Source: Eubacteriales bacterium (GTDB lineage Bacteria > Bacillota > Clostridia > Oscillospirales > CAG-272). From it: a DNA stretch of 49,081 nt. Shown here in pieces: positions 1,636 to 49,081 of this stretch (the stretch's first letter is position 1; every line of letters begins with the position of its first letter). The position numbers were made by a program, and so were the translations under genes. Location: NCBI GenBank assembly GCA_045596505.1, contig JAZOCO010000043.1, positions 1-49,081 of the forward strand. Direction: 5' to 3'. The notes under the pieces are model-generated. The model did not search any database. It worked only from the letters and a program-made list of their open reading frames with translations, and was not told the DNA's origin.

Positions 1636-2004
1636 TGGTGGATCCGAGGAGAGTCGAACTCCTGTCCGAAAACCCGTTCACAGGACTTTCTTCGTGGGTA
1701 GTCTTTGGTTTAAAATTCCCTTACAGCGTCGAGCAAAGACACCCTACGCCGCTTGGTAGCCCTTTTTTGCATGATCGGTACAAGTGCGAACTTCCGATGC
1801 ATGTTCACCACTGCATGACGCTCCCATCGGGGTCGTGGTCCTCCCCGCGGAAACGGGCGGCCTTAAAGCCGCGGCACTGCCAAATTAGGCAGCCAGTGCG
1901 ACGTTTTCGTCAGCGTTTAATTTTAAGGTTGAGCCTTTTTCGTGATTGCTCGGCACGCCACGCTTATCCTGCTTCAAGATCCCCGTCGAAACCTTTACGG
2001 ACCC
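1636..2004 (-). ncRNA. ssrA: tmRNA; tag peptide (A)ADENVALAA at 1914-1885
   Basis: 5' GGGTCCGTAAAGGTTTCGACGGGG; 3' GGAGTTCGACTCTCCTCGGATCCACCA; acceptor stem with G3.U pair; tag ORF ending ALAA-stop; smpB nearby. Confidence 0.97.
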
Positions 2005-24391: not shown

Positions 24392-24522
24392 AAAAAATCC
24401 CTCGGCGACCGAGGGAGACAGTAACGCTTCTCATCTCTCGGGATTTAGCACCTTACAAGATTTGCACCTTGCAGGTTGCTGTAGGTTCTGCGGGCCTGTC
24501 CCTCCCCTACTCTTGATGATTT
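24392..24522 (-). promoter_or_regulatory. SAM-I (S-box) riboswitch with terminator
   Basis: ATCAAGAG...GGAGGGACAGGCCC...CAGCAACC...AGGTGCTAAATCC...AGATGA (24522-24428); terminator TCCCTCGG-tcg-CCGAGGGA+T tract; upstream of metK. Confidence 0.93.
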
Positions 24523-25128: not shown

Positions 25129-25839
25129 TTATTTTGAAATACCAAAGCCAAAGGAACCGTCAAAAACCGTGAAAACAAGCACCATTGACGCCCCAATGAG
25201 CAAAATCCCAACTGCCGCGATTATCACGGTAGCAATGCGCCCCTTCGGTTTTGTCACGGCTGCCTTATCATTTGCCACGGTGGTATGACTCGTCAAAAAT
25301 CCGGCACGGTGCAAGGCACGCGACATAGATTTGTAAAGCAGCAGCACAACGCCTACATTCACGATCGCCTTTAGGAGATTGAACGGAAAAAGGAGCGTGG
25401 GGATCATCCCTCGCACTGCATCCACAGTAACACCCATATAAAACGGTGTGATAAGTAAATTGGCAAGCAGCATCACGGCGACCATCAAAGAGGCACCCGA
25501 TACAAGCGCCAGTATTGCACCCTTAAGGGTCTTTTTGTATTTATAAATGAGCGACGCGGTAACTGAAAAGGACACCGAGCCGAGTATGTTCATAATAAGA
25601 CCGTAGTAGCCCGTGGTGCTGACTGAAAGCTCCAAGAGTGGAACGGCTACGGAAATAAAAAGTGCGGGGGCGGGGCCGAAATACAGCCCGCAAAGCGTAA
25701 TAACTGCGTCCTTTACGTCAAGGGTTAAAAACCCAACTTTGATGTGAATCAGCAGCATTACAACGTATGCCATAGCGCAAAACATTGCAATGACTACTAT
25801 GCGGCGGATCATTTCTCCGCTCTTGGTACGGTGCTTCAT
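25129..25839 (-). CDS. ribU: ECF transporter S component, probably riboflavin (RibU)
   Basis: FLTLDVKD, FGP and PFNLLK S-component motifs; FMN riboswitch upstream. Confidence 0.85.
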   Translation of the reverse strand: MKHRTKSGEMIRRIVVIAMFCAMAYVVMLLIHIKVGFLTLDVKDAVITLCGLYFGPAPALFISVAVPLLELSVSTTGYYGLIMNILGSVSFSVTASLIYKYKKTLKGAILALVSGASLMVAVMLLANLLITPFYMGVTVDAVRGMIPTLLFPFNLLKAIVNVGVVLLLYKSMSRALHRAGFLTSHTTVANDKAAVTKPKGRIATVIIAAVGILLIGASMVLVFTVFDGSFGFGISK

Positions 25840-25873
25840 AACAATCTTCCTTTCAAATTTAACACGGAAGGCA

Positions 25874-26046
25874 CAAAAAATCCCGACGAAAAACACGTCG
25901 GGGTATTCGCGCATCTTCTCTCATCCGGACTTTACACGTCCTAAGACGTGGATAACCGTCGGCACAGGGATCTCACCTGTTCGGCTCCCTTTGGAGTTCG
26001 TGGGCTTTCACCACCGGTATGGAATTTCACCAATCCCCGAAAATAT
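25874..26046 (-). promoter_or_regulatory. FMN (RFN) riboswitch with terminator
   Basis: TTCGGGG..GGTGAAATTCC.ACCGGTGGT..AGCCCACGA...GGTGAGATCC...GCCGACGGT...AGTCCGGATGAGAGAAG (26046-25913); terminator at 25903-25874. Confidence 0.95.
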
Positions 26047-26061
26047 TGTATGTAGGATAAG

Positions 26062-26245
26062 TAGGGGCTGTCTCAAATGCCAAGGCATTTGGTCGACAAG
26101 CCCCTATGGTTTTTGTTTGGCGGCTAAACGCCGCCATTTTCACCCGTTTAACGGGTGAAAAACCCAAATTCCCAGCCACAAAAAGCCTACCGTCGCCTTT
26201 TTGTGGCGAAGGGGTGTCTCAAATTTGCAATCTGAGACACCCCTT
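26062..26245. mobile_element. Structured intergenic repeat element (MITE/REP-like), copy A
   Basis: Bounded by GGGGCTGTCTCAAA-like palindromes; the reverse complement of 26101-26210 aligns with 48856-48964. Confidence 0.75.
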
Positions 26246-26273
26246 GTTTATCGATGATCGATCAGATGATCAA

Positions 26274-27476
26274 TTACTCGATGATGGTAGCAACAACGCC
26301 GGAACCAACGGTTCTGCCACCCTCACGGATAGCGAAACGAAGACCCTCTTCACAAGCGATGGGGCTGATAAGCTCAACAGTCATATCAACGTTATCGCCG
26401 GGGCGGCACATCTCAACACCTTCAGGAAGGTTGATGGTGCCGGTAACGTCGGTGGTTCTGAAGTAGAACTGAGGACGGTAGCCAGCGAAGAAGGGCTTGG
26501 AACGGCCGCCTTCCTTCTCGGTAAGAACGTAAACCTGACCAACGAACTTGGTGTGGGGCTTTACGGAACCGGGCTTAGCAAGAACCTGACCGCGCTCGAT
26601 CTCGTCCTTTGCAATGCCACGAAGCAGTGCGCCGATGTTGTCACCGGCCTCTGCCTGAGGAAGAAGCTTGTGGAACATCTCAACACCGGTAACGGTGGTG
26701 TTCTTGGTTTCGGTGGCAAGACCAACGATCTCAACCACATCGCCTACCTTAACGGTACCACGCTCTACACGACCGGTAGCAACAGTGCCACGACCGGAAA
26801 TGGAGAACACGTCCTCAACGGGCATCAGGAAGTCAAGGTCTGCCTGACGTGCGGGGGTAGGAATGTAGGAGTCAACAGCCTCCATAAGCTCAAGAATGCA
26901 CTTGTACTCAGGTGCATTGATATCGGTGCTGGTAGAGGTAAGAGCCTCACGAGCAGAGCCGCGGATGATGGGGGTGTCATCGCCCGGGAAGTCGTACTCG
27001 GAAAGAAGCTCACGGATCTCCATGTCGATGAGGTCAAGAAGCTCCTCGTCAGCGATGTCGCACTTGTTCATGAATACAACCAGTGCAGGAACGCCTACCT
27101 GACGGGAAAGAAGAACGTGCTCGCGGGTCTGCTGTAGAGGACCGTCGGTACCTGCAACAACGAGGATCGCGCCGTCCATCTGAGCAGCACCGGTGATCAT
27201 GTTCTTAACGTAGTCGGCGTGGCCGGGGCAGTCAACGTGAGCGTAGTGACGGTTTGCAGTCTCGTACTCAACGTGACGGGTGTTGATTGTGATACCACGT
27301 GCTCTCTCTTCGGGAGCGTTGTCGATCTGGTCGTAAGCCATGAACTCGTTCTTGCCGTTTGCGAGAGAAAGAGTCTTGGTGATAGCTGCGGTAAGAGTGG
27401 TCTTACCGTGGTCAACGTGACCGATGGTACCAATGTTAACGTGCGGTTTTGTTCTTTCAAAGGTTTCCTTTGCCAT
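26274..27476 (-). CDS. tuf: Elongation factor Tu
   Basis: [32 protein letters not shown]. Confidence 0.99.
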
Positions 27477-33377: not shown

Positions 33378-33413
33378 AGGGGCAGTCGCAAATTTTCATT
33401 TGCGACAGCCCCT
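33378..33413. repeat. Palindromic repeat-family copy
   Basis: AGGGGCaGTCGCAAAT-tttc-ATTTGCGACaGCCCCT. Confidence 0.7.
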
Positions 33414-34810: not shown

Positions 34811-35078
34811 GGGCTGTCTCAAATTTGCATTTGAGACAGCCCCTCCAAGGGGGATGGTCAGATTTAGACGAGAAGCGTTCATCGTGGGGCGTGAGGCGTA
34901 CTCAGTACGTCGAGCCTTGAGAGGGACGCTAGAAAAAGTCCGTTTTAAAATGGAAGAATTTCGAAGAAATTCAACCTATTTTCTTCGCACAACCGTCTCA
35001 TTTGCTCTTTTTGTGGGCAAATGAGTTTTTTCTTTATTCTGCGGACTTTTTCGGTCGCGCCAAATATGACAGCCCCTT
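34811..35078. mobile_element. Palindrome plus ~225-bp nested-hairpin MITE-like element
   Basis: GGGCTGTCTCAAAT-ttgc-ATTTGAGACAGCCC (34811-34842); imperfect outer IR GGGGATGGTCAGATTT / AAATATGACAGCCCC; inner IR GAAAAAGTCCG / CGGACTTTTTC. Confidence 0.6.
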
Positions 35079-47147: not shown

Positions 47148-48395
47148 ATGGCAAACGATCCAACTAACAAGCGACTGCGGACAGGGCTGATCGGAGAGCA
47201 TCTGTCTCACAGCTATTCCCCTGAGATCCACGCCGCACTCGGCGATCGCGACTACCGCCTTTTTGAGCTGCCCGCCGAGAGTGTAGGCGACTTTCTCAAC
47301 TCCCGCGAATTTGACGCACTGAACGTCACGATCCCCTACAAGCAGGACGTGATCCCCTATCTTGACCGCTTATCCGACACGGCAAAAAAAATAGGCGCTG
47401 TCAATACCATCGTGCGTGAGGCAGACGGCACGCTTTCGGGATACAACACCGATTATGACGGACTTTCCCAGATGATAACCGATCTTGGCGTATCTCTTAA
47501 AGGCAAAAAGGTACTGGTGCTTGGCTCGGGTGGCGCCTCTAAAACGGCGGTTGCCGTTGCAACGGATATGGGCGCCTCTTTAGTGATCGTGATCTCACGA
47601 AAGGGCGAGGATAACTACCAAAACCTTGGAAAGCACGAGGATGCCGCGATCCTCATAAACACCACGCCTGTGGGTATGTATCCCAATAATGGCGCGGCGC
47701 CCCTGTCTCTTGATCGATTCCCCCACCTTGAGGCAGTTTTTGACCTCATCTACAACCCCTTGCGTACCGCGCTCCTACAGGACGCCGAGGCTCGTGGGAT
47801 CCCGCACCAAAATGGGCTTTTGATGCTGGTATCACAGGCACGACGCGCGCGAGAGCTTTTCACAGGAAAAGCCATTCCAAAAAGGAAATGCAGGGAGATC
47901 ACCGATTTGATCACGCAAAACACCGAAAATATTATTCTTATCGGGATGCCCGGTTGCGGCAAGACCACACTTGGCAAGCGCTTGGCAAAGGAGCTTAGGC
48001 GTCCCTTTATTGATGCAGACGAAGCACTGACCCTTGCCGCAGGGTGCGCCATCCCCGAAATTTTTAAAAGCGAGGGTGAAGCGGGCTTTCGCGCAAGGGA
48101 AAGCAGGGTCCTCTTTGAGCTTTGCCGCGAAAAGGGGCGTGTGATCGCCACAGGCGGCGGGTGCATAACGGTTGCAGAAAACTATAAAGCCCTGCACCAA
48201 AACGGTAGGATCGTGTTTCTTGACACACCCCCAGAGGGGCTTGCCGTTGACGGCAGACCCCTTTCCCTTGCGCGCTCACCCGAGGCGCTGTATCGCGAGC
48301 GCCTGCCGCTTTACCGCAAATTTGCAGACGTGACCGTTCACATTACAAGAGACGTGGAGGAAAATCTAAAACGCATCAAGGAGGCACTGAAATGA
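47148..48395 (+). CDS. aroE: Shikimate dehydrogenase-shikimate kinase fusion (AroE-AroK)
   Basis: HSYSP, NVTIPYK, GAVNT, NTD, then GMPGCGKTT, FRARE, ATGGG. Confidence 0.93.
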   Translation: MANDPTNKRLRTGLIGEHLSHSYSPEIHAALGDRDYRLFELPAESVGDFLNSREFDALNVTIPYKQDVIPYLDRLSDTAKKIGAVNTIVREADGTLSGYNTDYDGLSQMITDLGVSLKGKKVLVLGSGGASKTAVAVATDMGASLVIVISRKGEDNYQNLGKHEDAAILINTTPVGMYPNNGAAPLSLDRFPHLEAVFDLIYNPLRTALLQDAEARGIPHQNGLLMLVSQARRARELFTGKAIPKRKCREITDLITQNTENIILIGMPGCGKTTLGKRLAKELRRPFIDADEALTLAAGCAIPEIFKSEGEAGFRARESRVLFELCREKGRVIATGGGCITVAENYKALHQNGRIVFLDTPPEGLAVDGRPLSLARSPEALYRERLPLYRKFADVTVHITRDVEENLKRIKEALK

Positions 48396-48823
48396 AGCTG
48401 TTGATCATCAACGGACCAAACCTTAATATGCTGGGGCTGCGCGAACCGCAAATTTACGGGAACCGCAGCTACGGGGCGCTTTGCGAATGTATAAAAAAAG
48501 CCGTCGACGAGGCAGGGGCTACGTGCGAGATCTATCAATCCAACCACGAGGGTGCGATCGTAGATAAGATCCAAGCAGCATACGGCAGCTTTGATGGCAT
48601 CGTGATCAATCCCGCCGCCTACACGCACACCAGTGTGGCAATTGCGGACGCACTTTCTGCCGTGGCGATCCCAACGGTTGAGGTGCACATTTCAAACGTG
48701 ATGGAGCGCGAACCGTTCCGCCACCATTCATACGTCGCCCCCGTTGCAAAAAAGACCTATATGGGTCTTGGCTTTGAAGGGTATAAAAAAGCAATACGAT
48801 ATCTTGTGCTGGGGGAGGAATAA
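48392..48823 (+). CDS. aroQ: Type II 3-dehydroquinate dehydratase
   Basis: NGPNLNMLGLREPQIYG, QSNHEG, NPAAYTHTS, EVHISN. Confidence 0.97.
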   Translation: MKLLIINGPNLNMLGLREPQIYGNRSYGALCECIKKAVDEAGATCEIYQSNHEGAIVDKIQAAYGSFDGIVINPAAYTHTSVAIADALSAVAIPTVEVHISNVMEREPFRHHSYVAPVAKKTYMGLGFEGYKKAIRYLVLGEE

Positions 48824-48828
48824 GAAAG

Positions 48829-49081
48829 GGGGCTGCGTCTCATTAGCGCAGCCCCTTCTCAAAAAAGCCGACGGTAGGCTTTTTTGAAGCGCGGAATTTG
48901 CGTTTTTTGACCGAGAAACTGTCAGAAATGATGGCGTTTAGCCATCAAGCAAAAACGACAGGGGTGAGTAGCCGCAAGGGAATCGAACACATAAGGTTTT
49001 CGCCTGCAAATATTTGTCCATCCATCAGCCAAAAGCCTTGTAATATCCGCATATTGCTTCGGCTTTTCGCTTCGTCTTGCC
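48829..49081. mobile_element. Structured intergenic repeat element, copy B (may run off the window end)
   Basis: GGGGCTGCG..CGCAGCCCC hairpin, then 48856-48964 homologous to the reverse complement of 26101-26210, then further hairpins. Confidence 0.7.

Follow-up and report, generated by a model that had tools for sequence, protein, structure and literature searches.

What is the repeat that lies just behind two genes in this contig, and what put it there? The window analyzed here (the whole stretch of 49,081 nucleotides) is one entire contig of a draft genome, G000, which comprises 89 contigs and 1.58 Mb at 52% G+C and is 99.9% complete; other G-numbers denote the genomes of relatives, C-numbers denote contigs, and L-numbers denote loci. 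A sequence-only reading of the window had aligned the reverse complement of one stretch colinearly with a second stretch and had proposed that both are copies of either a structured RNA or a mobile element that is recognized as single-stranded DNA and targets or supplies terminators. The alignment is real: when 26101-26214 is reverse-complemented, it aligns with 48852-48964 over 115 nt with 75.7% identity (an E of 6.8e-15 in a search of the whole 1.58-Mb genome), and, judged by sequence comparison, this likeness is well past chance expectation. The conserved motifs and stem changes quoted in that reading are present in the sequence, and its account of the gene context is confirmed by the identities of the two genes, which encode EF-Tu (tuf) and a class II dehydroquinase (aroQ). 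Both window copies start 8-35 nt past a stop codon, in the same orientation as the gene.

Extent, build, and distribution of the repeat

We aligned all G000 matches with their flanks; this analysis identified a unit of 170-185 nt, here called E1, that is built of several hairpins. The ~110-bp unit first proposed was thus too short, and copy A alone exceeds it (Table 1). The parts of E1 follow one another in the order H1, H2, P3 5' strand, H4, H5, P3 3' strand, and H6, which we write as H1-H2-P3[H4,H5]-H6. The core is a three-way junction in which the long-range stem P3 surrounds H4 and H5. H1 and H6 are terminal hairpins, H2 is an A-run/T-run stem capped by a fixed loop of 7 nt, and the apex of H5, GGCGTTTAGCC, can also be written GGCGTTYAGCC. 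The boundaries are sharp, with GGGGCTG.. at one end and ..CACCCCC at the other. The termini form an imperfect inverted repeat made of the outer arms of H1 and H6, and each end is itself a hairpin; the terminal inverted repeat is GGGG(C)TGTCTCAAAT at either end in subfamily A and GGGGCTGCGTCA versus GGGGGTGAGTCA in subfamily B. The GGGG palindromes that the sequence-only reading placed before each copy are present, but they are part of the repeat and not separate preceding palindromes: because the GGGG..CCCC hairpins H1 and H6 are conserved between loci, they are parts of the element rather than local terminators.

Copy A lies 30 nt behind tuf, between the tuf stop codon and the promoter region of an FMN riboswitch, and its H1 is conserved, with compensatory changes, in the copies of C2 and C1. 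Copy B starts 5 nt after the aroQ stop codon. It is a real second copy, as claimed, but not a whole one, being truncated by an inserted 282-bp repeat (a MITE) that severs H6 after its first 10 nt; sister copies in C5, C52, C79, and C63 have H6 intact. We aligned nine copies of the MITE with their flanks, and the window contig stops inside this element. At C11 and C54, the other half of a split H6 adjoins the 282-bp MITE.

Table 1. Coordinates of E1 copies, their parts, and neighboring features in the window
Feature	Positions	Strand	Basis or remark
E1 copy A, subfamily A, complete H1-H2-P3[H4,H5]-H6	26064-26243	-	nhmmer, covariance model (CM; match at 26105-26208, 113.4 bits), alignments
H1 of copy A, 5' terminal GGGG..CCCC hairpin	26211-26243	-	Outer arm is one terminal inverted repeat
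H2 of copy A, A-run/T-run stem	26175-26207	-	Conserved 7-nt loop
H4 of copy A, hypervariable stem	26137-26162	-	Framed by fixed T and A runs
H5 of copy A, stem	26118-26136	-	Near-invariant apex GGCGTTTAGCC, kept in other genera
H6 of copy A, 3' terminal hairpin	26064-26104	-	Outer arm forms the second terminal inverted repeat
E1 copy B, subfamily B1; H1, H2, P3, H4, and H5 intact, H6 cut	48828-48970	+	CM (match at 48856-48960, 115 bits), alignment
282-bp MITE, terminal inverted repeat TAGCCGCAAGGGAATCG..	48969-49081	+	TA flanks; inserted at the TA of copy B H6
EF-Tu gene (tuf), before copy A	26274-27476	-	
Class II dehydroquinase gene (aroQ), before copy B	48392-48823	+	
Promoter-like site GAGACA..TACAAT	26045-26083	-	Before the FMN riboswitch
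FMN riboswitch	25909-26048	-	
ECF-transporter S-component gene	25129-25914		
SAM-I riboswitch	24428-24522	-	Above Rfam gathering score
tmRNA	1636-2004	-	Above Rfam gathering score
Stand-alone terminator hairpin	33379-33411		Arms GGGGCTGTCTCAAAT..ATTTGAGACAGCCCC
Stand-alone terminator hairpin	34811-34842		Arms GGGGCTGTCTCAAAT..ATTTGAGACAGCCCC

The 282-bp MITE has terminal repeats TAGCCGCAAGGGAATCGAACAC.., is also found at C74:14905-15182 and C45:52105-52384, and gives ~25 BLAST hits. It breaks many G000 contigs and lies at the same H6 TA at two or more sites. At C63:6915-7030, a partial E1 copy carries a third small repeat (GGCACAACCGAC..) in its H2 loop; this repeat also adjoins copies of the 282-bp MITE at C26, C70, and C74, and these small elements are nested in one another.

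Instead of the two copies first counted, G000 holds 14, both by nhmmer and by a core covariance model (R1) built from 12 copies. These copies belong to three subfamilies, and the genome also carries a few solo modules (H1+H2 alone, or H6 alone). Within its own genus, E1 occurs in 11 of 40 genomes, with 14, 30, 10, 8, 4, 3, and 2 copies plus four singletons. In the family sample, it occurs in 7 of 151 genomes and in 5 of 97 genera; 16 other families of the order, each represented by one genome, gave no match. When one genome per prokaryotic species was scanned for the exact pattern, 93 stretches were identified, and among the matches listed (80 of 93), all are MAGs labelled Oscillospiraceae, Clostridia, Eubacteriales, or Clostridiales, and their titles place them in the guts of animals or humans. 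No stretch with the E1 pattern was found in viral contigs. E1 is confined to a clade of uncultured Oscillospiraceae-type Clostridia of the gut.

In G043, all 20 copies compared are nearly identical and have identical sharp ends. Copies of subfamily B2 are 97-99% identical among G000, G042, and G043, whereas identity in the flanking genes is 67-90%, a contrast that suggests recent spread among species. E1 has recently multiplied in some genomes, and it is common, nearly unchanged, to several species. We also observed one variant with an insert of ~30 nt in the H4 loop (among L044 and L048 of G008; L049, L053, L056, and L059 of G021; and L052, L055, L046, and L058). Within the same variant group, one copy has H5 swapped for foreign sequence and one has an unrelated hairpin instead of H2. 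Forms that precisely lack H4 occur at L228, L229, and G000 C89:5841.

Insertion sites and native terminators

The spacer from tuf to the FMN riboswitch is syntenic in the genus, and in 6 of 6 relatives it holds one conserved native hairpin (TAACTCCCGACCC..GGGTCGGGAGTTA) and no E1. In the G000 spacer, exactly this native hairpin is gone, E1 is there instead, and both flanks can still be aligned. A hairpin is replaced likewise at G000 C5:14339 relative to 3 of 3 relatives (G008, G044, and G021), at L068 of G043 relative to its closest relative G042 as well as G021, G008, and G000, and at L063 and L076 relative to G000. At these five sites, the orthologous positions of the relatives hold ordinary terminator hairpins. 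We infer, from species that are 5-30% diverged, that the native terminator stem-loop was replaced by E1; in a two-step alternative, E1 may have inserted beside the native hairpin, and the hairpin may have been lost afterwards. A few E1 copies have small hairpins alongside.

A direct repeat at the ends is absent in 21 of 25 distinct loci, and in the other four it consists of 2-4-nt matches within A/T runs. The last four bases of the left flank are A-rich in 19 of the 25 loci, and the first four bases of the right flank are T-rich in 17; the flanking A-run and T-run are those of a two-way terminator. Thirteen of the 14 G000 copies lie ≤35 nt from a stop codon, and the remaining one lies at 77 nt. 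Based on a terminator scan, one G043 copy has 5 terminator-like sites on both strands versus 0.6 expected, and E1 bears hairpin-plus-T-run modules on both strands, making it a predicted two-way terminator. The hairpins of copy A are not followed by a good T-run, and the scan made no call there because the tail, inherited from the native site, is T-poor.

Over 25700-27400, RNA contigs from three metatranscriptome runs (with contigs from one DNA run) cover tuf, mostly with sequence of other organisms, and leave E1 uncovered; some contigs from those runs join 26038 to about 26272-26293, which fits relatives without E1. The -35-like hexamer of the promoter-like site before the FMN riboswitch lies in the outer arm of E1 H6, and the riboswitch leads the gene for the S component of an ECF transporter.

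The replaced native hairpins have no sequence in common with each other or with E1, its ends included. This bears on the proposal that E1 spreads without a dedicated transposase, by template switching or by short-homology gene conversion via the shared A-run, GGGG../..CCCC, and T-run. Such a process would fit the replacement of a hairpin with retention of the A and T runs and no duplication, and the transposase searches described below were negative. It would also fit the ~15 stand-alone hairpins of G000 that have the arms of subfamily A H1/H6 (GGGGCTGTCTCAAAT..ATTTGAGACAGCCCC). However, it would have to act on native hairpins that share no sequence with the E1 ends, and the 30 near-identical copies in one genome, together with near-identity across species, resemble bursts of an active element. 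We therefore regard transposase-free spread as quite improbable. The stand-alone hairpins, two of which lie in the window (Table 1), may be minimal relatives of E1 or its preferred context.

Copy numbers that range from 0 to 30 between species, near-identical copies, empty sites with native terminators, and predicted terminator-like hairpins on two strands support the original proposal of a non-autonomous mobile element that targets or supplies terminators. E1 is a real, undescribed family, and the reading of it as a mobile element is right in substance. That it is specifically a mobile element that replaces terminators is, in our judgment, likely.

Conserved fold and the case for a structured RNA

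The minimum-free-energy fold of one copy is H1-H2-P3[H4,H5]-H6, with z of -9.48 and -9.50 on the two strands. Across 12 G000 copies (11 distinct), 93.5% of cells are paired and 10 of 36 pairs are changed on both sides. The compensatory changes first seen between two copies hold with many more: across 62 copies from many genomes (52 distinct), in an alignment that was fitted to the model and whose copies are related to one another, 96.1% of cells are paired and 21 of 36 pairs are changed on both sides. In both sets, 0 of 500 shuffles reach the score. When the partners in the 62-copy set were slid by 1-3 columns as controls, ≤53.6% of cells were paired and ≤10 pairs were changed on both sides. 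The loops of E1 are nearly invariant and the stems vary; in H4, 7 of 9 pairs are changed on both sides among the 52 distinct copies.

Subfamilies in other genera (G141, G102, and G090) retain H1-H2-P3[H4,H5]-H6 with largely different sequence, including new versions of P3. Across genera, the T-run/A-run frame of H4 and the apex of H5 hardly change. This persistence of the architecture with different sequence is more telling than the pair counts.

These observations could indicate that E1 is primarily a structured RNA, either a 3'-UTR module or a small RNA, with its junction and loops selected at the RNA level and its spread secondary. The pairing statistics set against the slid controls, the covariation of the long-range stem P3, the architecture kept in other genera, and the near-invariant loops are all in its favor. 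On the given strand, there are 57 G-U versus 14 A-C cells, although 26 of the 57 G-U cells come from a single loop-closing pair. No T-run follows H1 in the sense orientation, so a transcript would carry the entire element as far as H6. Against this reading, the larger alignment is model-fitted, and short local palindromes in DNA are established to acquire paired changes via template switching, without selection. The two strands fold equally well. G043 copies occur in sense-only, antisense-only, and convergent settings in similar numbers, and this occurrence in either orientation relative to genes counts against a strand-specific RNA. Two copies were examined for a promoter-like site, and none was found. 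At Rfam gathering thresholds, a scan of the window identified only tmRNA and the FMN and SAM riboswitches, none of them over E1, and two E1 copies searched against Rfam gave no match even at E up to 10. We consider a primary RNA identity unlikely; it stays a minority possibility because the junction is conserved.

The conserved junction with its invariant loops exceeds the needs of a simple MITE. It may be that the three-way junction P3/H4/H5 is a functional folded module riding on E1, conserved across genera while every stem changes, although we think this improbable as well. A group II intron derivative, a retron RNA, an integron attC site, and a tRNA-like element were also considered for E1 and rejected because size and copy number did not fit and no Rfam family matched.

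Candidate transposases and comparison with known systems

The hairpin at each end, the conserved loops, and the lack of target duplication would suit an element that is REPIN/BIME-like or derived from IS200/IS605 and that a Y1 (HUH) transposase moves in the form of folded single-stranded DNA, and a Y1_Tnp gene (PF01797) is indeed present in G057 and, in pieces, in G008. However, no Y1_Tnp was found in G000, despite its 99.9% completeness, or in G056, which has the most copies among the exact-pattern matches listed. TnpB (PF01385) was found in 0 of 5 genomes, G000 included; the ends of the G057 Y1 element have no similarity to E1; and the left flank of E1 is merely A-rich, without a fixed short target motif. 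We therefore judge a Y1-based origin very unlikely. Of the original proposal, recognition as single-stranded DNA is the part that gained no support, and the RAYT that it suggested might co-occur was not found in G000.

Searches of the same five genomes for an IS110 DEDD transposase (PF01548) found none above the cut-off, and those for the IS630 DDE_3 domain also found none, so that no IS630-type transposase was found for the 282-bp MITE. G000 has no assembled repeat >650 bp, and clustering of ORFs at its contig ends identified only the 282-bp MITE and k-mer overlaps. Because these are draft MAGs without repeats >650 bp, in which an IS630 gene is missing despite an abundant TA-flanked MITE, a missing transposase says little.

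Furi et al. in 2016 are said to have reported stem-loop-replacing transposition in the IS1182 family, to which IS1272 belongs. No IS1182 transposase above the cut-off was identified in the 10 E1-bearing genomes searched (G000, G056, G057, G008, G021, G141, G068, G102, G090, and G178), although 50 of 401 genomes sampled across the bacterial family encode an IS1182-family transposase. The one genome in the genus with an intact IS1182, G003, has no E1, and none of 29 IS1182 loci has E1-like ends. In G000, a degenerate N-terminal remnant of an IS1182-like transposase (46 residues, E 3.9e-7, with a frame break) lies at C65:9537-9690. This remnant is cut by the 282-bp MITE, and before it stand a GGGGCT..-type hairpin and an A-run hairpin arranged as H1-H2. 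The terminal repeat of the IS1182 copy at L241 shares 19-20 of 22-23 positions with the extended 3' arm of H2, a weak, A-rich match (E 7e-4 to 2e-3 in a small search); the outermost ends of E1 do not match IS1182 terminal repeats. A match in G141 was rejected as IS1182, being a truncated IS5-like fragment without E1-like ends. IS1182 copies within one genome are ≤71% alike or unrelated.

According to excerpts of Wan et al. 2017 (PMC5678879), IS1272 targets stem-loops that are unrelated in sequence, several of which lie immediately downstream of genes; the target hairpin is removed without duplication, and the transposon ends join at the feet of the cruciform. As far as these excerpts describe it, E1 resembles IS1272 in having stem-loop targets of unrelated sequence, removal of the target, no duplication, and terminal inverted repeats. 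Unlike IS1272, E1 has no transposase gene, is ~175 nt rather than ~1.9 kb long, ends in whole hairpins, and has a three-way-junction core. The hosts also differ, being uncultured gut Clostridia for E1 and staphylococci for IS1272, and no IS1182 with matching ends was found. The insertion mode of E1 is closest to that of IS1272. At three IS1182 copies from other genera (L239, L241, and L245), a complete terminator hairpin stands in direct orientation on either side, so the whole stem-loop was apparently duplicated upon insertion; direct duplication of this kind corresponds to the other pathway in the excerpts of PMC5678879.

In function and position, E1 is closest to the pneumococcal SPRITE as that repeat is described. 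Excerpts of the SPRITE paper (PMC3049150) describe it as terminator-like, with A/T ends, located near gene 3' ends, and lacking both a duplication and a matching IS; it forms one long AT-rich duplex followed by a U-rich tract, is enriched between convergent genes, and had no empty sites available. Going by those excerpts, E1 is likewise a small dispersed Firmicute repeat that is terminator-like, lies at gene 3' ends, and has A-run/T-run ends, no duplication, and no matching IS, but it differs in its six helices, its GC-rich terminal hairpins, and the documented replacement of native terminators. E1 differs from IS1272 and SPRITE alike in being a mosaic of six helices and in having a conserved junction.

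Other mosaic repeats are less similar. E1 has the terminal inverted repeats of a classical MITE, but not the target-site duplication, and an autonomous IS with the same ends was not found in these draft MAGs. REP/BIME/REPIN sequences with RAYT are mosaic palindromic intergenic repeats at gene ends, with possible effects on termination or mRNA stability. The neisserial mosaic or Correia elements are intergenic palindromic units, and Correia elements make TA duplications, according to excerpts of a review (PMC10969869). Like these, E1 is a mosaic intergenic repeat at gene ends and is built of palindromic units; unlike REPIN and Correia elements, it has no RAYT in G000, makes no TA duplication, and has an internal junction without counterpart. 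A non-exhaustive search of the literature, which took in excerpts of that review on MITEs from 2024, identified no miniature element lacking genes that is shown to replace terminators and no work on this lineage.

The account we lean towards is that E1 is a non-autonomous mosaic mobile element that undergoes stem-loop-replacing transposition with a transposase acting in trans and that supplies two-way terminators. E1 would move by structure-dependent, stem-loop-replacing transposition, as described for IS1272, and its transposase would be provided in trans; because the partner transposase was not found, we infer this transposition step. After insertion, the terminal hairpins of E1 would assume termination in both directions. 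We propose that insertions are tolerated and retained because the hairpins of E1 take over termination. That the mechanism is specifically of the IS1182 type is a tentative suggestion, and we hold it less probable than its negation. The conserved three-way junction with fixed loops might be a handle recognized by the mobilizing protein, or it might have a role at the RNA level. If functional, it could be a structure-specific handle for an enzyme that moves terminator cassettes between genes and species; alternatively, it could be an RNA domain that dozens of genes have acquired simultaneously in their 3' UTRs.

Intrinsic terminators are commonly seen as static and locally evolved, whereas here a mobile cassette appears to have overwritten them at the housekeeping genes tuf and aroQ and to have spread between species. 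E1 would carry stem-loop-replacing transposition, so far known from a staphylococcal IS, to a gene-less miniature element of an uncultured gut lineage, and it would turn what was only a suspicion for SPRITE into a concrete example with empty sites. Repeats of this type break MAG assemblies, and they can mimic structured RNA genes in covariation screens. If the junction module is functional, gut Clostridia would be swapping intrinsic terminators for a mobile structured cassette, whichever role the module has.
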